Virus record (IMG/VR): IMGVR_UViG_2563366969_000004
Location: 1-40,824 of that record
Length of the DNA stretch: 40,824 nucleotides
From: a virus
Taxonomy: Duplodnaviria; Heunggongvirae; Uroviricota; Caudoviricetes
Direction: 5' to 3' (one strand)
Position 1 is the first letter of the stretch; each line of letters opens with the position of its first letter. Positions 3,362-35,408 of the stretch are shown here, one piece after another. A model generated the notes under the pieces. The model had not been told where the DNA came from and ran no database searches. It worked only from the letters and a program-made list of their open reading frames with translations. Made by a program: the position numbers and the translations under genes.

Positions 3362-3388
3362 CCCGCAAAATATTGCGGGCTTTTTTTT
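3362..3388 (+). terminator. Rho-independent terminator oriented for plus strand
   Basis: CCCGCAA-aata-TTGCGGG followed by T8; overlaps stop of tailspike gene; no annotated plus-strand gene upstream. Confidence 0.45.
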
Positions 3389-6300
3389 AACGTTCTTCCA
3401 GAGACTGAATCCGCTCTTTTATCTTATCCATTTCTCTGCGCTGCCATGCTGCCTCGATATAGAATAAGAGATCAGGTCTGACCCCCCATCTAGATCCTGC
3501 TGGCGTTATTTCAACGCGCTCAATGATGTCTTCCATTACCATCACTGGATTATCATCCTCATCAACAATGATGCTCCCGTCATTATCAGTCAGCGGCATT
3601 TCCCTTTGGCCAGTAATGACGTCATCATATACTGCGGGATAATCGTCATAGCAAAGAAAGGCATAGCGGCATGTTGTGCTTTCTTCTTCCATGAGTCCGT
3701 GAGAAATAAGAACATCACGAAGTTGCTGCGCGATTACACCATGATGTATCCTCGCCCCTTCTTCCCCCTTTATAGCGACAGCGTTCAGCCATTTATAAGC
3801 GATATACCTGACGTCACCCCAGGCATCCAGCAATGCTTCGTCAGGAGAGACCGGCTCTGTCTTTAATGTTCCGTCACTGGTAACCACAGGATTGGAGCCA
3901 AGATAAACTGTCGAGAACCTGTTTCCCGGACCACCAAGAGCATTTACATTATCAAGATAAGGTTTAACATCTCCGTTCTCAAAAAGATGTTCGAGTGCGT
4001 TATATACCGCGCGACGTGGAGTACTGCTTCCGGAACCATGCAACGTTATCATTGCACCATCTGCTGAAGACGTTGTTTCACCGCCGCTAACGATTAATCT
4101 CTGAGCGGTAACATCATCAGACGGTACTTTCTTCGCAATAATGGCGTAATTACCCTCAAGTTTGACTTCCGCGCGAACTTGTCCTGATGTACCTGCATGG
4201 ACAGTCAGTGACTGGACGGCAACATCATCTGTGAAATCAACGGGTACAGGAACCGTCCTCACGCCTGACGTCGACATAAAAGTAGGAAGCGTTCTGTTAG
4301 GAGTGGCTCCGTAGACAAAATCCCTTGAAACAAATTCTTCCTGTTTAATTTTCACCCTGAAACAATACAAATCAGCCGGGTGACCATCGTGAACATAAGG
4401 ATATTTTCTGTTGTTATCCCCTATGCTCCATGGGTTTAGAAAGTCTTCCCCACCGAAAATGTAGTACAGCCAGTTGTCTTTGATACAAACTGAACCAACA
4501 CCAACCGCAGAGTTAACTATTCCGCCCTGATAAATCTGATCAGTAACATTAACCCACTCTACATTATCCAGACTCCACTCATTGACGTTAACTCTGGTCA
4601 TAAATGTTCTTGGATAGTTTCCTGCATAACGGTTATCAGGTTCTCCTCCTTCCCACTCACCAAATGCGCGCTCACTGCCAAAAATAATCAGCTCATCGCC
4701 AACTTTGGCAAAAGGAAGGTTTGAGTGATGAACATTATTTGGGAAGCGAAGAGAATTCCATGATGTACCTAAATCAGAGCTTCTGTGCAATGAACTACCG
4801 GGTTGAGTACTTAATGTCCCCCTGGTCGTCAGATACAGAATGCCATCATAATATTTTACACATGGCTCAGATGCATTCGCCTCATATTCTGCAGGTATGC
4901 GTCTGCGAACAAAGCTACCAGGAGAACCGAAAGCATCAGAGAAATAGAGTATCCCAAGCTCGCGTGGACCAATATCACCATTATGGTAGCCAACAGCAAA
5001 ACTGTTATCGCTAATCGTCGCAAAACTGTGAATCTCAGTAACAGGAGTGCTTCCGTCAACAAAAGAAGGAATAGTTCCAAGACTGGTTTTTCTCCATGGT
5101 GACGAGTGAAATGATGTACCAAAACTCCAGTATCTACCCTCGTTATTCTGATCCACATCCTGGGTATTTTGCGTCGTAACTGTAAAAGTATTTTTATCAA
5201 TAACAGTAGTCACCGTCATATTCCCGGTAACACCTGTAACACCAGAGTTTGAGAAGTTGACAAAATCACCAGCAAATAATCCGTGATCAGTAATGCGAAT
5301 ATAAGCGACTTGCTGATTTGCTGCTTTCGTTATACCACCATAAACGCGAAGGCTGCGACTCATTGGGCGATCCCACAACTCTGCAACCTGCAGTTTATTT
5401 CCGCTCACGGTCCGCGTCTCAATTACAGCAAAAAGGCGATTTCTGACAACCCCCATACTCATGCAGTGATAGTTAACTGTGGGATAGTTTTCATGTAAAT
5501 CTGTAAGCCATTCCGGCGTTGTCCAGGTCTTCCCGTCATCTCCTGAGCGAACCCATGCAACATGGAGGTTATTTACACCATGGCGGTCTCCAGCCATAAA
5601 AGGCGCATAGATGACATTGTCATATACAAACGTTTTATCCTGCGTCCAGGCGTTGTACCACGGTGTATCTGTAATTTTAAATAACTCTCCCTGGATAAAA
5701 TCTTCAGAAGCATAAAAAAGAGGCTGGCCCGGTATTCTCTCAAATAAAAAACGAGCATTTTTAAATCGACTGACATCCGGAAGAGTTGATACTTTAAAAG
5801 TAAGCCCTAATCCGTCAATTTTATAACCTGGAGATGAGGCTTCAAGGCACGCGCTTATTGCAGTGGAATCGTCATTTATACCATCACCAACAGCTCCAAA
5901 ATCTTTGGGGCTAATAGCATCACGCATTTTATCCTGGAACGTTCGGTACACAGCCCCAGAACCATACTGAATAAACCAACCAAAACCACCAACAACCCCG
6001 GCGATTGCAGCATCGACATAATTACGCATTGAGCGATTATTTACAGCGTCCTGCTCAAATGATGGATCTGCAAGGTTAGAAATTTTGTTTTGCTTTGCAT
6101 CGTAATATTTTGCAAGCAAAGATGGTTTCATCAATGCACGTCTGAACCACCCAAAACATTGCTGGATCAGCATCGTCAGGTAGTCAAAGGCATCTTCATG
6201 CACTTCGGGGAAAAATTTTCCCTGATTGCGAAGGTCTGTCTCCTGCACTACATCAAGCACACGATCTATCGTAATTCGCCATCCAGTAGCAAGCGGAGAC

Positions 6301-6506
6301 GGAAGAACCACAGAACCGCCACTATAAGTGCCCGCCCCAGTTACCGTATAACCGGTATCCAGAACCAATTCTGTTACGTTTCCGTTCAGGTCAGACACCT
6401 GAACAACCAGGTCTGATTTTCTGAAAATTCGAAAAGTATACGGAAACGATGTCGTAACGCCGTTACCGGTGTATTCGTTGTGGTCAACTTCGGTTGAGAC
6501 CGTCAT
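3387..6506 (-). CDS. Tailspike / polysaccharide depolymerase with C-terminal intramolecular chaperone (peptidase S74-like) domain
   Basis: 1039 aa; N-terminal virion-attachment-like segment; motif DFGAVGDGINDDSTAI; two Asp-box motifs (SGDDGKTW, SSDLGTSW) as in sialidase-type propellers; C-terminal SDGTLK motif and conserved tail resembling the auto-cleaving chaperone of endosialidases; SD GGAG upstream. Confidence 0.8.
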   Translation of the reverse strand: MTVSTEVDHNEYTGNGVTTSFPYTFRIFRKSDLVVQVSDLNGNVTELVLDTGYTVTGAGTYSGGSVVLPSPLATGWRITIDRVLDVVQETDLRNQGKFFPEVHEDAFDYLTMLIQQCFGWFRRALMKPSLLAKYYDAKQNKISNLADPSFEQDAVNNRSMRNYVDAAIAGVVGGFGWFIQYGSGAVYRTFQDKMRDAISPKDFGAVGDGINDDSTAISACLEASSPGYKIDGLGLTFKVSTLPDVSRFKNARFLFERIPGQPLFYASEDFIQGELFKITDTPWYNAWTQDKTFVYDNVIYAPFMAGDRHGVNNLHVAWVRSGDDGKTWTTPEWLTDLHENYPTVNYHCMSMGVVRNRLFAVIETRTVSGNKLQVAELWDRPMSRSLRVYGGITKAANQQVAYIRITDHGLFAGDFVNFSNSGVTGVTGNMTVTTVIDKNTFTVTTQNTQDVDQNNEGRYWSFGTSFHSSPWRKTSLGTIPSFVDGSTPVTEIHSFATISDNSFAVGYHNGDIGPRELGILYFSDAFGSPGSFVRRRIPAEYEANASEPCVKYYDGILYLTTRGTLSTQPGSSLHRSSDLGTSWNSLRFPNNVHHSNLPFAKVGDELIIFGSERAFGEWEGGEPDNRYAGNYPRTFMTRVNVNEWSLDNVEWVNVTDQIYQGGIVNSAVGVGSVCIKDNWLYYIFGGEDFLNPWSIGDNNRKYPYVHDGHPADLYCFRVKIKQEEFVSRDFVYGATPNRTLPTFMSTSGVRTVPVPVDFTDDVAVQSLTVHAGTSGQVRAEVKLEGNYAIIAKKVPSDDVTAQRLIVSGGETTSSADGAMITLHGSGSSTPRRAVYNALEHLFENGDVKPYLDNVNALGGPGNRFSTVYLGSNPVVTSDGTLKTEPVSPDEALLDAWGDVRYIAYKWLNAVAIKGEEGARIHHGVIAQQLRDVLISHGLMEEESTTCRYAFLCYDDYPAVYDDVITGQREMPLTDNDGSIIVDEDDNPVMVMEDIIERVEITPAGSRWGVRPDLLFYIEAAWQRREMDKIKERIQSLEER

Positions 6507-6610
6507 GTTAAATCTCCAGATAGTCGCAGCACCCGTTGCGCCGCATATCTGGTTATTCTATTACCTGGAAAACCACATATGGATAGAAAGGCTGTAAATA
6601 CGAATAGATA

Positions 6611-6625
6611 TTACCTTTCAGGTAA
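6611..6625. promoter_or_regulatory. TTACC-N5-GGTAA palindrome (putative repressor operator), copy A
   Basis: ATTACCtttcaGGTAAT perfect inverted repeat upstream of small antirepressor-like gene. Confidence 0.5.
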
Positions 6626-6662
6626 TTTGCAAAACGTGCTGGATAGCAAACAAATTATTTGA

Positions 6663-6682
6663 TACTGTATAAATATACAGTT
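6663..6682. promoter_or_regulatory. LexA (SOS) box overlapping promoter of 6702..6959 gene
   Basis: TACTGTATAAATATACAGTT: CTGT-N8-ACAG with AT-rich spacer, near-consensus to enterobacterial SOS box TACTGTATATATATACAGTA; overlaps TATAAA -10-like hexamer. Confidence 0.65.
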
Positions 6683-6701
6683 ATTGCATGGAGAAGATAA
6701 G

Positions 6702-6959
6702 ATGCAGCAGTATCACTATCCACTGGAAGACGGATTTACCGAAAGGATTCACACGCCGGGAGGCGTCAGGTCACTGGTGGAGGGATCGCACTTGATGAAA
6801 TTACTCCGGGATCTCGATAAGGATGGATTTAATGTCGATGGCCCACTTGCCGAACTGACTGCACTGATTAACTACGTCACCAGCTCACAGATGTCTATGC
6901 AGGATCTGCAAACACATCTCGACTATTGTGCCGAACAATTACGAAAACAAACCCGGTAA
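6702..6959 (+). CDS. Small protein (85 aa) homologous to C-terminal domain of the Bro-N protein at 8108..8818; candidate SOS-inducible antirepressor
   Basis: ATG at 6702 with SD GGAG 8 nt upstream (the six-frame ORF start at 6684 is TTG); roughly 40 percent identity by eye over about 70 aa to residues about 165-236 of the Bro-N protein; LexA box on its promoter. Confidence 0.6.
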   Translation: MQQYHYPLEDGFTERIHTPGGVRSLVEGSHLMKLLRDLDKDGFNVDGPLAELTALINYVTSSQMSMQDLQTHLDYCAEQLRKQTR

Positions 6960-6965
6960 ATTTAA

Positions 6966-6983
6966 AGGCCGCAAGAGCGGCCT
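6966..6983. terminator. Hairpin between convergent genes (terminator-like)
   Basis: AGGCCGC-aaga-GCGGCCT; same stem sequence recurs at 9642..9659. Confidence 0.4.
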
Positions 6984-7710
6984 ATCGTTTCGCTTTGTGC
7001 TCGTCCCAGCACGTTTTGCACCATGCCATTAAGCCGTCCGCATTTTGATTATTAGGGTAAAAGCTGGTCCGTTTTCTGCGGACATTACAAATTGGGCACC
7101 ACTTCATATGGCGTGTATTCTTTGGGCCATCGAGACACCTTGCACACCACTTAGTCAATCCATCTGGATTTTTTGACGATTTCCGGAATTTGTCATATGG
7201 AAGGTTTATTCTGCATCGCAAACACTGCTTGCGGCCACTTGAAACTCTGTTAGCTGATTCTTCTTTTGGCGGCGATACAGAAGGTATTCTTGCTGGCTCT
7301 GATACTGCCTGAGGTGCTTTTTTAGATGACTGAGACGATATGTCATCACCAGGGAATCTTCCATGATATGCCGGACGCGTTGACACTCCAGGTGGAAGCT
7401 CAGCTGTAAACGGCTTTGGCTGAATCAGTTGCCTCTCTTTTGCTAACTCCTGCTGTTTATAATATGTCTGGATTACCGCACTATCATAAGCAGGAGGTAC
7501 GGAAATATCAGGCGCGTTACCTCCAGTTTTTTGAAAATGAGTAGATGTGTGTTCTATCACCTGTGTACGACTAATCGTTACCTCCCCATCTTCGGTCTTT
7601 ATCGTTTTGTTCTGATTAACGACCGTACGATCAGAGATCTTAGTCTTGTTCTGGTTGATAACGTAAATAATCACCGCAACCACACCAACAACTATCCAGA
7701 AAACTTCCAT
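6982..7710 (-). CDS. Membrane-anchored protein with tandem C4 zinc-ribbon repeats, unknown function
   Basis: N-terminal TM helix followed by basic residues; C-terminal two repeats of C-x2-C-x21/22-(DGL..W)C-x2-C; SD GAGGAAAA upstream of ATG. Confidence 0.6.
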   Translation of the reverse strand: MEVFWIVVGVVAVIIYVINQNKTKISDRTVVNQNKTIKTEDGEVTISRTQVIEHTSTHFQKTGGNAPDISVPPAYDSAVIQTYYKQQELAKERQLIQPKPFTAELPPGVSTRPAYHGRFPGDDISSQSSKKAPQAVSEPARIPSVSPPKEESANRVSSGRKQCLRCRINLPYDKFRKSSKNPDGLTKWCARCLDGPKNTRHMKWCPICNVRRKRTSFYPNNQNADGLMAWCKTCWDEHKAKR

Positions 7711-7730
7711 TGCTTTTCCTCACAATAACA

Positions 7731-7745
7731 TTACCTTAAAGGTAA
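7731..7745. promoter_or_regulatory. TTACC-N5-GGTAA palindrome, copy B
   Basis: ATTACCttaaaGGTAAT, 20 bp upstream of start of 6982..7710 gene in divergent region. Confidence 0.5.
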
Positions 7746-7823
7746 TATCTTGCTTTCAGGTGATCAAGCGTTAAACGCAATCAACCAAATACGGTTGATT
7801 TTAATATTTCTTCGCGTTTATCA

Positions 7824-7838
7824 TTACCTTTGCGGTAA
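7824..7838. promoter_or_regulatory. TTACC-N5-GGTAA palindrome, copy B2
   Basis: TTACCtttgcGGTAA between divergent accessory genes, upstream of structured leader. Confidence 0.5.
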
Positions 7839-7929
7839 ATTTACATCGCACTCCTCTTGTGCCATAGTAATCGGGCACTGGCAAAATCCAGTGCCGGGAT
7901 TGGCGTCCCGGGTTACTAAGTGGCGCATA

Positions 7930-7951
7930 CCACGCCAGACGTGGTTTTTTT
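7930..7951 (+). terminator. Rho-independent terminator/attenuator upstream of Bro-N gene
   Basis: CCACG-ccaga-CGTGG followed by T7; preceded by two further hairpins (7874..7895, 7895..7911). Confidence 0.5.
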
Positions 7952-8107
7952 ATGCGTTAAGCACAGCTATATCCGAATTATGGTGGGCTGGGCAGGGGTC
8001 CGAAAGGACGCCGGTACCACTTAGGCCGGTACGCCAACCTTGTCCAGTTCACCACCAGTAATTGGCGTTGCGGTGGTGATTAAAATCACTAAGTGGAGAT
8101 AACCACC

Positions 8108-8818
8108 ATGGCTAATGCTCAAACTTCCATCTTCAAATTTGAATCTGTTAACCCTATCCGTTCCATCATTATCGATGGCCAACCATGGTTTGTAGCCCAA
8201 GACGTTTGTAGTGCGCTGCGTATCCAAAACGTCACCCAAGCACTTGAAAAACTGGATGATGATGAAAGGTCTATGTTCAACATAGGGCATGAACATCGTG
8301 CAATTTTTGACAGCCGAGTAAAAGAGATCAACATCATCTCCGAGTCAGGCCTCTACACACTGATCCTCAGCTGCCGCGACGCAGTGACACCAGGCACTAT
8401 CCCCTACCGCTTTCGTAAATGGGTTACAGGTGAGGTTCTTCCTCAGATCCGCCGCACCGGAAGTTACATAAAAAACTCGCTCCCGCAAGAAGAACGCATA
8501 AAGATGGTTGCCGACCAGGTAGCCAACGCCACGGCGTCAGCAGTAATGCAGGCGATGAAGATAGAGAACAAAACCTACAGTGCCCCACTGAAGCCCGGCT
8601 ACCGCAGCCTGATTCACTCGCCGTCTGGTGTTCTCGGCCTGACGGAGAACTCACTGCTGATGAATCTGTTGAACCAGTTACAGGAAGACGGGCACGACGT
8701 ATCGGGCGCGGCGGCGGAGCTGACCACCATGTTCTGCTACATCGTCGGTGTGAGCAAATGCCTGCGTGATATCCAGACCCACGCGGAGTACATCAACGAC
8801 AAGGCAGGGTTCTTCTGA
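8108..8818 (+). CDS. Bro-N domain antirepressor-like protein (Ant-like)
   Basis: N-terminal Bro-N/KilA-N-like motif (IFKFES...IRSIIIDGQPWFVAQDVCSALRI...) ; C-terminal domain homologous to 6702..6959 product; ATG 8108 with SD GGAG (the six-frame ORF starts at GTG 8093). Confidence 0.7.
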   Translation: MANAQTSIFKFESVNPIRSIIIDGQPWFVAQDVCSALRIQNVTQALEKLDDDERSMFNIGHEHRAIFDSRVKEINIISESGLYTLILSCRDAVTPGTIPYRFRKWVTGEVLPQIRRTGSYIKNSLPQEERIKMVADQVANATASAVMQAMKIENKTYSAPLKPGYRSLIHSPSGVLGLTENSLLMNLLNQLQEDGHDVSGAAAELTTMFCYIVGVSKCLRDIQTHAEYINDKAGFF

Positions 8819-8889
8819 CGGCGGCGGCACAGGGATGTGCCTTTAAATAATTCTGTACGATTGCAGACCGGGGGGTGAATAGAGTACTA

Positions 8890-8904
8890 TTACCTTACGG
8901 GTGA
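8890..8904. promoter_or_regulatory. Imperfect TTACC-N5-GGTGA palindrome overlapping candidate promoter
   Basis: TTGCAG (8861..8866) - 17 bp - GTACTA promoter-like elements immediately upstream; site overlaps -10/+1. Confidence 0.35.
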
Positions 8905-8992
8905 TCCATAGCGATTAGGCACCGATACAGGAGGAGCCCACATGAGAAAATTTGACGAGTACGAAGGCGTTTAACATTCGGATAGTTTAATG

Positions 8993-9015
8993 ACGGGGCC
9001 ATTAGGCCCCGTTTT
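8993..9015 (+). terminator. Hairpin/attenuator in leader of 9034 gene
   Basis: ACGGGGCC-atta-GGCCCCGT followed by TTT; preceded by 10-codon mini-ORF (8942..8974) with SD AGGAGG. Confidence 0.35.
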
Positions 9016-26139: not shown

Positions 26140-26229
26140 ATCAATGACTCCGTACGCAATTAAATTATTACCAATTTAACCACATATGATTTATTTATCG
26201 TAGAAGGTTGACATTTAACGCGTTAATTA

Positions 26230-26244
26230 TTACCTTTCAGGTAA
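26230..26244. promoter_or_regulatory. TTACC-N5-GGTAA palindrome, copy C
   Basis: ATTACCtttcaGGTAAC; TTGACA hexamer at 26208..26213 just upstream; about 320 bp upstream of tRNA. Confidence 0.5.
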
Positions 26245-26566
26245 CCAAAGGGCTCATTCTGGTTACTAACCTGACTGGCTTGTCGTTAAATTAAACAGGT
26301 GGAGTGAGCTTTTATTTTGAGCAGTACGGCGTATGGCACATGCGCCGATAGCGGTCTGGATACGTTTAAGGGGCACCCTCCCTGGCTGTGGCAAACGAAC
26401 CAGGTAGCCGGAATGTGCAAGTCGAGCGGTTTTATTCCGCGCACGGGGATTCACCATCCCGGCGATTCGGTGTGACGCCTCGGAAGAGACGAGGGTACAA
26501 CGATGAGAGCATTTATGGAGCCGCGACAAAGTGTGGCGCCTTAACAGGCTAAGTGCTCTCAGCGTT

Positions 26567-26643
26567 GTGGCATTAGCTCAGTTGGACAGAGCAACCGCCT
26601 TCTAAGCGGTTGGTCGCAGGTTCGAATCCTGCATGCCACGCCA
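26567..26643 (+). tRNA. tRNA-Arg (anticodon UCU), phage-encoded
   Basis: Cloverleaf folded by hand: acceptor GTGGCAT/ATGCCAC, D-arm GCTC/GAGC, anticodon stem ACCGC/GCGGT with loop CTTCTAA, T-arm GCAGG-TTCGAAT-CCTGC, discriminator G and encoded CCA. Confidence 0.9.
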
Positions 26644-28782: not shown

Positions 28783-29384
28783 TGATTGCCATCCTGACGT
28801 TCTTTCAGTCTCTTCCTGGCTGCCGCTATGCGATCAGCAATTGTCACATTCACATTAACATCCAGGCGTTCTTTGAATGCATTGACATCGACGTGCTTAC
28901 CAATCAGTTCGAGGTTCTTCACCTTGTCAGGCCATTTAATTTTTTTGAGGATTGTCTCTATCGAATCCTCGTCCATGTTCATGATGGTCGATGACAGATC
29001 AAAGCCGCTAAGCGTAGTGCGCCAGATTTTCGGCCACTCGCGGATTGGCTTAAGGCTCCCATCGTCGTTGAGGATATCAATCACGTCCATCTGGTCGATC
29101 TCCACCAGGCGCATGAGAACGTAATCAGCACTGACGCGCATTCGTTTGTTGCGCTCCTCCATCAACTCGGCAATCCGTTTCTGAATGCGTTCATCGCGCA
29201 TCATGACACTGGCTTTAACTGCCGCTGTATTTGGGGAGAATCCTGCATTAATCGCAGCCTGAGTCTGATTTTCAGGCGTTTTGATGTATGACTGGCAATA
29301 AGCCTCCTGCATTGCTGTTAGTGGCTTAAATTGCGTTGATTTGCGTTTATAGGTTTTAGGTTCAGCAGGCATCATAACCACCAT
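28779..29384 (-). CDS. Terminase small subunit (Terminase_2-like)
   Basis: LTAMQEAYCQSYIKTPENQTQAAINAGFSPNTA matches conserved N-terminal HTH of the small-terminase family; start uncertain (in-frame ATGs at 29384, 29375, 29372; the six-frame ORF starts at TTG 29453). Confidence 0.65.
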   Translation of the reverse strand: MVVMMPAEPKTYKRKSTQFKPLTAMQEAYCQSYIKTPENQTQAAINAGFSPNTAAVKASVMMRDERIQKRIAELMEERNKRMRVSADYVLMRLVEIDQMDVIDILNDDGSLKPIREWPKIWRTTLSGFDLSSTIMNMDEDSIETILKKIKWPDKVKNLELIGKHVDVNAFKERLDVNVNVTIADRIAAARKRLKERQDGNQ

Positions 29385-29449
29385 GGTAATAGTTACCGTT
29401 GTGGTAATAGTACCATGCAAAATAAAGCCGCCATAGTTGGCGGCAGTAT

Positions 29450-32248: not shown

Positions 32249-32251
32249 GAT

Positions 32252-32266
32252 TTACCTCTGAGGTAA
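32252..32266. promoter_or_regulatory. TTACC-N5-GGTAA palindrome, copy D
   Basis: TTACCtctgaGGTAA immediately upstream of DUF1064 gene start. Confidence 0.5.
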
Positions 32267-32313
32267 TTAAAAACCACATAAGACACGAAATCAATAGAGT
32301 TTAGAATATTTTG

Positions 32314-32328
32314 TTACCCAACAGGTAA
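32314..32328. promoter_or_regulatory. TTACC-N5-GGTAA palindrome, copy E
   Basis: TTACCcaacaGGTAA between P-like gene stop and DUF1064 gene. Confidence 0.5.
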
Positions 32329-32365
32329 CTATCAAGACATAAAAAAATGCGCTATCGCGCTGGTA

Positions 32366-34285: not shown

Positions 34286-34516
34286 TCATGAGTAGAAGAA
34301 GTATGCCAGTTCTGCTTTTGAGCGCAGCCATTGTCTTGTTTTACAGGCTTTAAAAAGCCCATTCATCAATACCTTACCTGGCATTTTGCGCTTGCCTGTT
34401 AAGTGAGTCTGGATATAGTGACTCGTCGTTCCGGCTTCCTGTGCGAAGGCTTCACGCTCATCCGGAGTAAGTGCAAGCCAGTGCTTTTTGAAATCGAAAT
34501 GTCCGTTATCGCTCAT
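34286..34516 (-). CDS. Cro-like HTH regulator
   Basis: 76 aa; HTH-like segment EAFAQEAGTTSHYIQTHLTGKRKMP; divergent from CI-like gene across operator-rich 154-bp region. Confidence 0.6.
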   Translation of the reverse strand: MSDNGHFDFKKHWLALTPDEREAFAQEAGTTSHYIQTHLTGKRKMPGKVLMNGLFKACKTRQWLRSKAELAYFFYS

Positions 34517-34598: not shown

Positions 34599-34600
34599 AT

Positions 34601-34615
34601 TTACCTGTTGGGTAA
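34601..34615. promoter_or_regulatory. TTACC-N5-GGTAA palindrome (OR-like region)
   Basis: TTACCtgttgGGTAA between divergent Cro-like and CI-like genes. Confidence 0.55.
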
Positions 34616-34670
34616 TATTGCTTTAAATTGAATCATCTACTGATTCATATATGAGGCGATTTTCCAGAAA

Positions 34671-35255
34671 ATGAAAAGTATCCAGGACGTCCGCAGGCAA
34701 AATCTCAACGACTTGATCGACCGTGAATTCAATGGTGTTCAGACGCGGATGGCAGAAAAACTTGGAACTCAGGCAAATCTGGTAAACCGCTGGGCTCTTG
34801 GCAAGAAGGTTATCGGCGACCAGGTTGCGCGAAAAATTGAAGCTGCCGCCAATAAACCCCGTAACTGGCTTGATATCGATCGCTCGCTTTCTCAGGAAGG
34901 TTTTCAGCCTGTCGGCCCAAGCGACATTGGTCAGCTGGCGGCTCACAACCTGGAACGCTGGATGAGCGAAAGCCGCGACCTTTCAACACAGGGAAAACTT
35001 CACCGCGCATCCGGCGTCGCCCAGGTGACAATCAGCCGCCTGTTAAACAATGAGGTCAGCGTTTCCATTTCCACCCTGGAGAATGTTGCATCCGCATTCG
35101 GGCGTCACGGATATGAACTACTGATTCACCCGCACGACCCTGCGACTATCAACTATGACCGCTCACGCTACGCATTGTTACCCGAAACCGAGAAAGCAAA
35201 GATCGAAAGTTACATTGAATTTGTCATCAACCAGAACGAAAAAAGCAAACAATAA
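34671..35255 (+). CDS. CI-like prophage repressor with two HTH (XRE-type) segments, no S24 peptidase domain
   Basis: 194 aa; HTH-like QTRMAEKLGTQANLVNRWALGKK and SGVAQVTISRLLNNEVSVSISTLENVA; no Ser-Lys autocleavage module recognisable; no SD within 10 nt of ATG; strong terminator follows. Confidence 0.6.
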   Translation: MKSIQDVRRQNLNDLIDREFNGVQTRMAEKLGTQANLVNRWALGKKVIGDQVARKIEAAANKPRNWLDIDRSLSQEGFQPVGPSDIGQLAAHNLERWMSESRDLSTQGKLHRASGVAQVTISRLLNNEVSVSISTLENVASAFGRHGYELLIHPHDPATINYDRSRYALLPETEKAKIESYIEFVINQNEKSKQ

Positions 35256-35299: not shown

Positions 35300-35312
35300 A
35301 TTGCCATCAAGA

Positions 35313-35327
35313 TTACCTTATGGGTAA
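35313..35327. promoter_or_regulatory. TTACC-N5-GGTAA palindrome (OL-like region)
   Basis: TTACCttatgGGTAA. Confidence 0.55.
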
Positions 35328-35374
35328 TTTTTTTAACTCATATCTATTGACATCAAACCAAATACGCATAATCA

Positions 35375-35389
35375 TTACCTCAACGGTAA
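35375..35389. promoter_or_regulatory. TTACC-N5-GGTAA palindrome (OL-like region)
   Basis: TTACCtcaacGGTAA about 20 bp upstream of small ORF start. Confidence 0.55.
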
Positions 35390-35408
35390 CAAGCCGAGGT
35401 AACAAGTT

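Follow-up and report, generated by a model that had tools for sequence, protein, structure and literature searches.

How might a temperate phage whose repressor carries no recognisable self-cleavage domain sense damage to the DNA of its host? The question is raised by a short divergent intergenic region in a 40,824-nt stretch of viral DNA (Caudoviricetes; IMG/VR record IMGVR_UViG_2563366969_000004, positions 1 to 40,824; hereafter the window), where a first-pass annotation made from the letters alone had placed a near-consensus LexA (SOS) box on the promoter of a gene for 85 amino acids and proposed its product as a LexA-repressed antirepressor directed against a non-cleavable repressor. In nucleotide searches the DNA of 6400..9000 is 91-98% identical in the E. 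coli phages TL-2011b, HEMP4, ZX5 and phiV10 and ~77% identical in the epsilon15-like phages of Salmonella, all the relatives so found being Uetakevirus podoviruses. The gene order agrees: read leftwards from the right end, it passes from the integrase through rep and the early genes to the minus-strand terminase, head and injection-protein genes, then to the tailspike gene, which here encodes an endosialidase, and the lysis genes. The window is thus essentially one epsilon15-like (Uetakevirus) prophage of E. coli. The locus itself is common, in that a 453-bp segment with the promoter and the gene is found in 531 of 5426 complete E. coli genomes, matching at 100% in strain MS8345 and at 99.8% in the K1 strains IHE3034 and APEC O18. 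The features on which the argument turns are collected in Table 1.

Table 1. Positions of the features discussed in the text, counted from the first nucleotide of the window.
Feature	Position	Strand	Basis and remarks
Tailspike gene	3387..6506	minus	Divergent from ant
17-bp palindrome ATTACCTTTCAGGTAAT, very likely a Rep operator	6610..6626		Motif match; half-sites invariant in 9/9 phages
Candidate ant promoter	6640..6668	+	-35-like TGGATA 6640..6645, 17-nt spacer, TG 6660..6661, TACTGT 6663..6668
LexA (SOS) box TACTGTATAAATATACAGTT	6663..6682		18/20 consensus match, half-sites conserved, sole match in window
Shine-Dalgarno sequence GGAGAAG of ant	6690..6696	+	Direct sequence reading; conserved in alignment
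ant, 85-aa antirepressor (by homology)	6702..6959	+	Orthologue of SPC32H Ant and epsilon15 gp19
GC-rich hairpin AGGCCGCTCTTGCGGCCT	6966..6983		Terminator scan; 3' of ant
isrK RNA	7875..7951		Rfam 67.7 bits vs gathering score 50
C4 antisense RNA	7976..8059		Rfam 66 bits vs gathering score 45
Bro-N protein gene	8108..8818		N-terminal Bro-N (Pfam), Ant-like C-terminal domain
Predicted Rep operator	34600..34616		Between rep and a cro-like gene (34286..34516, minus); one mismatch to motif
rep, 194-aa prophage repressor	34671..35255	+	Two HTH-type domains, conserved C-terminal tail, no S24
Predicted Rep operator pair, 35312..35328 and 35374..35390	35312..35390		Spaced at 62 bp, on either side of a TTGACA-N17-AATCAT promoter downstream of rep

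The box is real. TACTGTATAAATATACAGTT departs from the SOS consensus TACTGTATATATATACAGTA at two of its 20 nt with CTGT-N8-ACAG intact, it is the sole match to that consensus in the whole window when up to three mismatches are allowed, and 100 dinucleotide-preserving shuffles of the window produced none. The bare CTGT-N8-ACAG pattern occurs three times against 0.47 expected, the two other strings having GC-rich spacers and the spacer of the box at 6663..6682 consisting of A and T only. We further aligned the tailspike-ant intergenic region of nine phages of E. coli, Salmonella, Enterobacter and Klebsiella, the columns of which have a mean identity of 75%. Both half-sites, CTGT and ACAG, are invariant across six phage lineages and in seven of the nine phages (all those of E. 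coli, Salmonella and Enterobacter), and they stand at a fixed distance from the ant start codon; the two Klebsiella phages read ATGT-N8-ACAG instead. The box of the Salmonella phage SPC32H aligns with that of the window gap-free and with equal spacing to the ATG. A scan of IMG/VR returned 80 loci with Ant proteins 99-100% identical, a set that shows retention of the box and adds little diversity, and among the 73 of these loci with a recognisable ant leader CTGT-N8-ACAG is kept in 70, the variants differing in the spacer only.

A palindromic box in the divergent region between 6506 and 6702 might equally be thought to control the tailspike gene and not ant. It ends, however, 19 nt from the ATG of ant and starts 157 nt from that of the tailspike gene, and across the aligned phages the spacing on the ant side is invariant whereas the tailspike side carries indels. 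A natural mutant bears on the same point: over the 1049 nt compared around ant, SPC32H and its clear-plaque sibling SPC32N differ at two bases, one of them a C-to-A change that turns the right half-site of the box from ACAG to AAAG, the other in the tailspike gene. The two genomes reportedly differ by two nucleotides in total, and Kim and Ryu are said to have found in 2013 that the mutation in the box renders Ant constitutive and SPC32N lytic. The database sequences match that account, the base change itself being confirmed in them. Control of the tailspike gene is thus a highly improbable reading of the box, and we take it as belonging to ant.

Which promoter the box would cover is a finer question. 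It had been suggested that a TATAAA hexamer overlapping the box is the -10 element; the string is indeed present at 6668..6673, but the orthologous promoters read TATGTT, TATATT, TATAAG or TACATA at that place, a lack of conservation that led us to discard the hexamer as the likely -10. Invariant in the nine-phage alignment, and constantly spaced, are TnCTGGAnA (6637..6646) and TG-n-TA (6660..6664), and TGGATA-N17-TACTGT with its upstream TG, an extended -10, would accordingly make a better candidate for the ant promoter than TATAAA. In a scan with consensus promoters, neither the ant promoter nor the box received a sigma-70 call. Given an extended -10 of the form TG-n-TACTGT, both the -10 and the transcription start would fall inside the LexA box. 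Directly downstream, as first proposed, lies the 85-aa reading frame, preceded by the Shine-Dalgarno sequence GGAGAAG and opening with an ATG 19 nt past the box; it is the sole open reading frame between the box and the GC-rich hairpin. The unit is monocistronic and runs away from the tailspike gene, on the opposite strand. The epsilon15 record annotates a rho-independent terminator at the place equivalent to this hairpin, which is likely a bidirectional terminator closing the monocistronic ant unit. In other epsilon15-like genomes, those of SPC32H and of epsilon15 itself, ant has the same position, a monocistronic gene pointing away from that for the tailspike.

The encoded protein is 88% identical over residues 2-84 (tblastn) to the product of the SPC32H gene annotated 'ant: anti-repressor protein', and the SPC32N gene was matched likewise. 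Searched by tblastn against 50,697 phage records, it hit 35, all of them epsilon15-like phages apart from a few Klebsiella prophage records. Against the PDB (phmmer) it matched one sequence, chain E of entry 5D50, named 'Anti-repressor protein' (E 4.1e-47), and its best match among the PHROGs is phrog_450 (E 9e-48), which is listed as function unknown. Pfam gave nothing above cut-off, only a sub-threshold chance match to DUF724 (17.6 bits vs a cut-off of 38.4), and neither NCBIfam nor PADLOC gave a match. The want of a Pfam, NCBIfam or PADLOC match, together with the status of phrog_450, accounts for the label 'hypothetical protein' that the gene bears in genome records, among them ten of ten E. 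coli records among the matches listed. By homology, the 85-aa protein is a small antirepressor of the SPC32H type, that is, Ant, the protein of 5D50 chain E and a member of phrog_450.

An antirepressor calls for a repressor, and the first-pass annotation had pointed to a CI-like one without the S24 peptidase module. Pfam agrees, assigning Rep to HTH families only (HTH_3 and a YdaS-type HTH) and finding no Peptidase_S24 domain in it, and on this ground a lambda CI- or LexA-type autocleavable repressor, which would carry a C-terminal S24 Ser-Lys module, was rejected as a description of Rep. A cleavable S24-type repressor hidden elsewhere in the window was rejected as well, none having been found by domain search or by tblastn: ten further early-region proteins lack the S24 domain, and LexA and lambda CI as queries gave only noise against the whole window (E at least 2.8). 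Rep matches chain A of PDB entry 5D50, 'Repressor', over its full length (E 3.5e-42) and 5D4Z over residues 89-190, and its SPC32H counterpart is annotated 'rep: repressor'. The identity to SPC32H Rep is 43% overall; it is highest in the N-terminal HTH (53%), falls to 34% in the middle domain and rises again to 50% in the C-terminal tail. In an alignment of Rep from six phages, no variation is seen in the NLVNRW (recognition) helix or at 13 positions of the tail (160-189). PMC9986798 describes the C-terminal tetramerisation domain of Rep as the domain that Ant binds. Because Rep is only 43% identical to its SPC32H homologue, it is from the conservation of the C-terminal tail that we infer binding of Ant to Rep in this prophage.

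Rep would act through a family of sites, and one of these stands close to the LexA box. The operator-like palindrome noted upstream of the box at 6611..6625 is real and slightly longer than claimed, covering 6610..6626, and it conforms to the motif ATTACC-N5-GGTAAT, of which the window holds 15 occurrences at up to two mismatches against 1.16 expected. These are mostly intergenic, on both sides of rep and before the replication, terminase/head, Bro-N and DUF4760 genes. SPC32H has the same 17-bp motif in the same places, clustering round rep, and in the GenBank record of epsilon15 eight such sites carry the label 'repressor; lysogeny', one of them adjoining gp19, the ant orthologue. Since the motif is over-represented, common to SPC32H and annotated in epsilon15, the palindrome is very likely an operator for Rep. 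Several operators are paired at a spacing of 62 bp, among them the two beyond rep and those at 32251/32313, and SPC32H shows this spacing too; a second operator 62 bp from the 6610 site was looked for and none was found, that position being occupied by the LexA box. The palindrome is thus single, centred on 6618 and ~54 bp upstream of the centre of the box.

Belonging to the Rep operator family and sitting upstream of the box between divergent genes, the palindrome makes it possible that ant takes a dual input from LexA and Rep, as had been suggested. The competing account, in which the palindrome has no part in regulating ant but serves as operator for the divergent tailspike/lysis unit or as an anchor for Rep looping, leaving ant to LexA only, is a strong contender that we place slightly short of even odds. 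It draws on the position of the operator, which stops 14 bp short of the -35-like element and would leave the candidate ant promoter uncovered; on a conserved minus-strand -10-like TAGAAT at 6555..6560, closer to the tailspike start; and on the habit of the operators elsewhere, which are paired at 62 bp with one over a promoter, where here the LexA box lies 62 bp downstream. On the other side, the spacing from operator to LexA box is constant in the seven phages of E. coli, Salmonella and Enterobacter, whereas that from operator to tailspike gene carries indels, and a tetrameric repressor can still repress from an upstream operator.

Together, these observations point to the region as the part of the lysis-lysogeny switch that takes in the SOS signal, orthologous to that formed by Ant and Rep of SPC32H, a reading to which we give a probability of roughly 0.9. 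The SPC32H papers (the 2013 work of Kim and Ryu and that of Kim and colleagues in 2016) reportedly describe LexA control, a Rep that is not cleaved and an Ant-Rep complex. Orthology of Ant, Rep and the box to their SPC32H counterparts supports the original proposal of a LexA-repressed small antirepressor working against a non-cleavable repressor. Carried over to this prophage, the switch would operate as follows. In the lysogen, host LexA would sit on the box, overlap the ant promoter and keep the monocistronic ant gene silent, while Rep, bound to its 17-bp ATTACC-N5-GGTAAT operators, would hold the phage transcription units off. DNA damage would activate RecA and lead to self-cleavage of LexA, whereupon ant would be transcribed; Ant would then bind the conserved C-terminal domain of Rep and break up the DNA-binding Rep tetramer, so that Rep, uncleaved, would be titrated off its operators and the lytic genes expressed. 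This order of events agrees with the review PMC7380047, in which Ant is made after self-cleavage of LexA and the repressor is inactivated.

Set against known systems, the prophage resembles SPC32H most closely: both are Uetakevirus, with ant divergent from the tailspike gene, Ant proteins alike to 88% and of lengths within one residue of each other, the same distance from box to ATG, the same 17-bp operator motif and a full-length Rep homologue without S24. They differ in that the two Rep proteins are only 43% identical, and in that the window prophage has an E. coli host, an endosialidase tailspike and ~3 kb of extra genes, absent from SPC32H, that separate ant from the injection-protein genes; one of them is a second gene with an Ant domain, placed behind isrK and C4 RNAs. 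The authors of the SPC32H work are said to regard its Ant class as structurally distinct from earlier antirepressors. As judged from these likenesses, the SPC32H class is the best-fitting family for the ant system.

Two further systems, 186 Tum and the Gifsy antirepressors, had been offered as precedents, and here the analogy holds for function and fails for family. Tum of coliphage 186 resembles what we propose for Ant in being a small protein, expressed from a LexA-repressed promoter, that binds and inactivates a non-cleavable immunity repressor (U32222 annotation; PMC3121763); coliphage 186 differs from the window prophage in phage type and repressor family. Tum has 146 aa and a DinI-like second half (PMC3121763), whereas Ant has neither a DinI nor any other Pfam match above cut-off, and a relationship of Ant to Tum was rejected, BLASTP against Tum (U32222 29082..29522) giving 16.5 bits and E 0.061 in a single comparison. 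The Gifsy proteins GfoA, GfhA and GftA are likewise small, LexA-controlled and encoded outside the immunity region, and their repressors are uncleaved (PMC3121763); they can, moreover, act on diverged repressors (Lemire et al. 2011, PMC3121763). Their genes, however, belong to LexA-controlled operons in which a dinI homologue comes before the antirepressor (PMC3121763), an arrangement that is missing here, where ant is monocistronic, and they form A2B2 complexes (PMC3121763), which does not apply to Ant; it is by such descriptions that the Gifsy set was told apart.

A second, putative antirepressor module is found at 7711..8818, among the extra genes, and both SPC32H and epsilon15 are without it; PADLOC found no defence-system match among these neighbouring extra genes. 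The module comprises an isrK RNA, a C4 antisense RNA and a gene for a Bro-N protein whose C-terminal 74 residues resemble Ant (42% identity, E 9e-16); the protein also matches phrog_450 (E 4e-36). Rep operators are predicted upstream of the Bro-N gene at 7730 and 7823, and the isrK/C4 stretch lies at most 1.5 kb from ant in 59 of 64 related loci. The C4 RNA is complementary over 8 nt to each of two places, 8072..8079 and 8089..8096, and the second of these overlaps the Shine-Dalgarno sequence of the Bro-N gene; a single complementary match of at least 8 nt arose in 35 of 1000 shuffles. In the immI region of P1, a c4 antisense RNA is found with ant. The module resembles immI of P1/P7 and isrK-orf45-anrP of Gifsy-1 (PMC4825925) in its isrK-like RNA with a terminator, its C4-like RNA and its Bro-N antirepressor-like gene, and it shares with the P1/Gifsy type a C4 RNA complementary to the ribosome-binding region of that gene. 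It departs from both in that the C-terminal domain of the Bro-N protein is a homologue of Ant of the SPC32H type and in that Rep operators lie upstream.

This neighbour raises the alternative that Ant is one of two antirepressors acting on Rep and that the Bro-N protein, controlled by the isrK/C4 RNAs and the Rep operators, may supply much of the antirepression, either as a feed-forward lock once SOS has set in or in anti-immunity upon infection. The Ant-like C terminus (42%, phrog_450), the isrK/C4 pair directly upstream with its complementarity over the Shine-Dalgarno sequence, the operators at 7730 and 7823 and the recurrence of isrK/C4 near ant in the 59 of 64 loci all speak for it, but SPC32H and epsilon15 use Ant without this module and the window scan found no LexA box near the Bro-N gene, and on balance we consider it unlikely. 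Were there two antirepressors, deletion of 6702..6959 alone would give a partial phenotype only; the second Ant-domain protein could make the small Ant partly redundant. The two might also be arranged in series, in a two-stage circuit in which Ant would strike Rep first, upon SOS induction, and the loss of Rep from 7730/7823, and perhaps from 6610, would unlock the Bro-N protein, which ends in a diverged Ant copy and which the isrK/C4 RNA leader would otherwise keep off, a scheme we consider doubtful. The reading we prefer for the region at large is still the one in which Ant, under LexA, provides the SOS input to Rep.

The switch described here is, on present evidence, an E. coli copy of the LexA-Ant-Rep switch of SPC32H, and its mechanism is already known and not new, having reportedly been established genetically in 2013 by Kim and Ryu and structurally in 2016 by Kim and colleagues for an orthologue 88% identical to the present Ant. 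Since the SPC32H switch is already understood as far as a crystal structure, the finding, though correct, is an ordinary one. Its value lies in annotation: with a name for the ant family, an SOS-inducible prophage whose repressor is non-cleavable could be recognised in ~10% of E. coli genomes. Experiments might be worth while only on the second, RNA-controlled gene with an Ant domain next to ant. If the two-stage circuit were true, it would convert a graded SOS signal into irreversible commitment or provide an anti-immunity weapon on superinfection, and it would join RNA control of the immI type, as in P1 and Gifsy, with LexA control of the SPC32H type on the same Rep-binding fold.

The LexA half-site ACAG ahead of ant, the 85-aa antirepressor gene, is intact in the window. 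Direct comparison of two sibling Salmonella phages, SPC32H (the source of the characterized Ant/Rep switch) and SPC32N, over 1049 nt around ant (KC911856/KC911857, record coordinates about 19960) yields two differences: one, G to A, lies within the tailspike gene, and the other, C to A, converts the equivalent LexA half-site from ACAG to AAAG. The ant locus (window 6702..6959) is matched in 531 E. coli genomes, and the gene bears the label 'hypothetical protein' in all ten of the E. coli records listed as well as in most phage records; neither Pfam nor NCBIfam holds a model for the Ant family, and its PHROGs family, phrog_450, carries the label 'unknown function'. This is an annotation gap, given that the gene is orthologous to an antirepressor of solved structure.

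Downstream, the window carries what its sequence features mark as a second, putative antirepressor module (7875..8818, plus strand), in which the isrK and C4 RNAs precede a gene for a Bro-N protein; over its last 74 residues this protein shares 42% identity with the small Ant. Two 8-nt complementarities to the C4 region are found at 8072..8079 and 8089..8096, the latter overlapping the Shine-Dalgarno of the Bro-N gene. SPC32H and the related Salmonella phage epsilon15 lack the module. Of 64 related loci in IMG/VR, 59 have the isrK/C4 stretch within 1.5 kb of ant. Inserted between ant and this module is what looks like an accessory gene (moron), a 242-aa ORF present in only 18 of the 64 loci; its product is hydrophobic at the N-terminus, carries two Cys-rich repeats at the C-terminus, belongs to phrog_6762 (unknown function), matches the Stc1, endonuclease VII and Lar-like zinc-finger families weakly, and has no match in PADLOC. 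The DUF4760 protein, with a single N-terminal hydrophobic stretch, is likewise without a PADLOC match, and an operator-like site for the repressor Rep (8889..8905) lies 130 bp upstream of its gene.

On the other side of ant, the MS8345 record labels the tailspike 'endosialidase catalytic beta-propeller domain-containing protein', and the K1 strains IHE3034 and APEC O18 are among the closest genome matches; the prophage is epsilon15-like with a predicted K1-capsule-specific tailspike. Between the tailspike start and the Rep operator, conserved blocks (6555..6585, minus strand) may represent the tailspike promoter together with an activator or IHF site, and an IHF site is annotated at the equivalent place in epsilon15. 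Elsewhere in the prophage, a tRNA gene occupies the position at which SPC32H and MS8345 annotate tRNA-Arg.

Coordinates of features in the window
Feature	Position	Strand	Remark
TAGAAT	6555..6560	-	conserved block
ATTACC operator half-site	6560..6565		conserved block
AACC-N2-ATATG-N-AT	within 6555..6585		conserved block
Tailspike, 1039 aa	3387..6506	-	annotation in 100%-matching E. coli MS8345 record
ORF, 242 aa	6982..7710	-	convergent with ant
isrK RNA	7875..7951	+	Rfam, score above gathering
C4 antisense RNA	7976..8059	+	Rfam, score above gathering
Bro-N protein, 236 aa	8108..8818	+	3' of isrK and C4
DUF4760 protein, 179 aa	9034..9573	+	opposite in direction to late genes
tRNA gene	26567..26640	+	inside prophage; Rfam tRNA, 73.3 bits
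ATTACC-N5-GGTAAT sites	7730..7746, 7823..7839, 8889..8905, 26229..26245		palindrome
ATTACC-N5-GGTAAT sites	29374..29408, 32251..32329, 34600..34616, 35312..35390		palindrome

The 17-bp ATTACC-N5-GGTAAT palindrome family, presumably bound by Rep, counts 15 sites across the whole window against 1.16 expected (at most two mismatches); nearly all transcription-unit boundaries carry it, and several pairs are spaced by exactly 62 bp. The motif of SPC32H is identical to that of the window although the two Rep proteins are only 43% identical. Since the recognition helix of the repressor, NLVNRW, is invariant, the E. coli and Salmonella phages that share this motif might be homoimmune.
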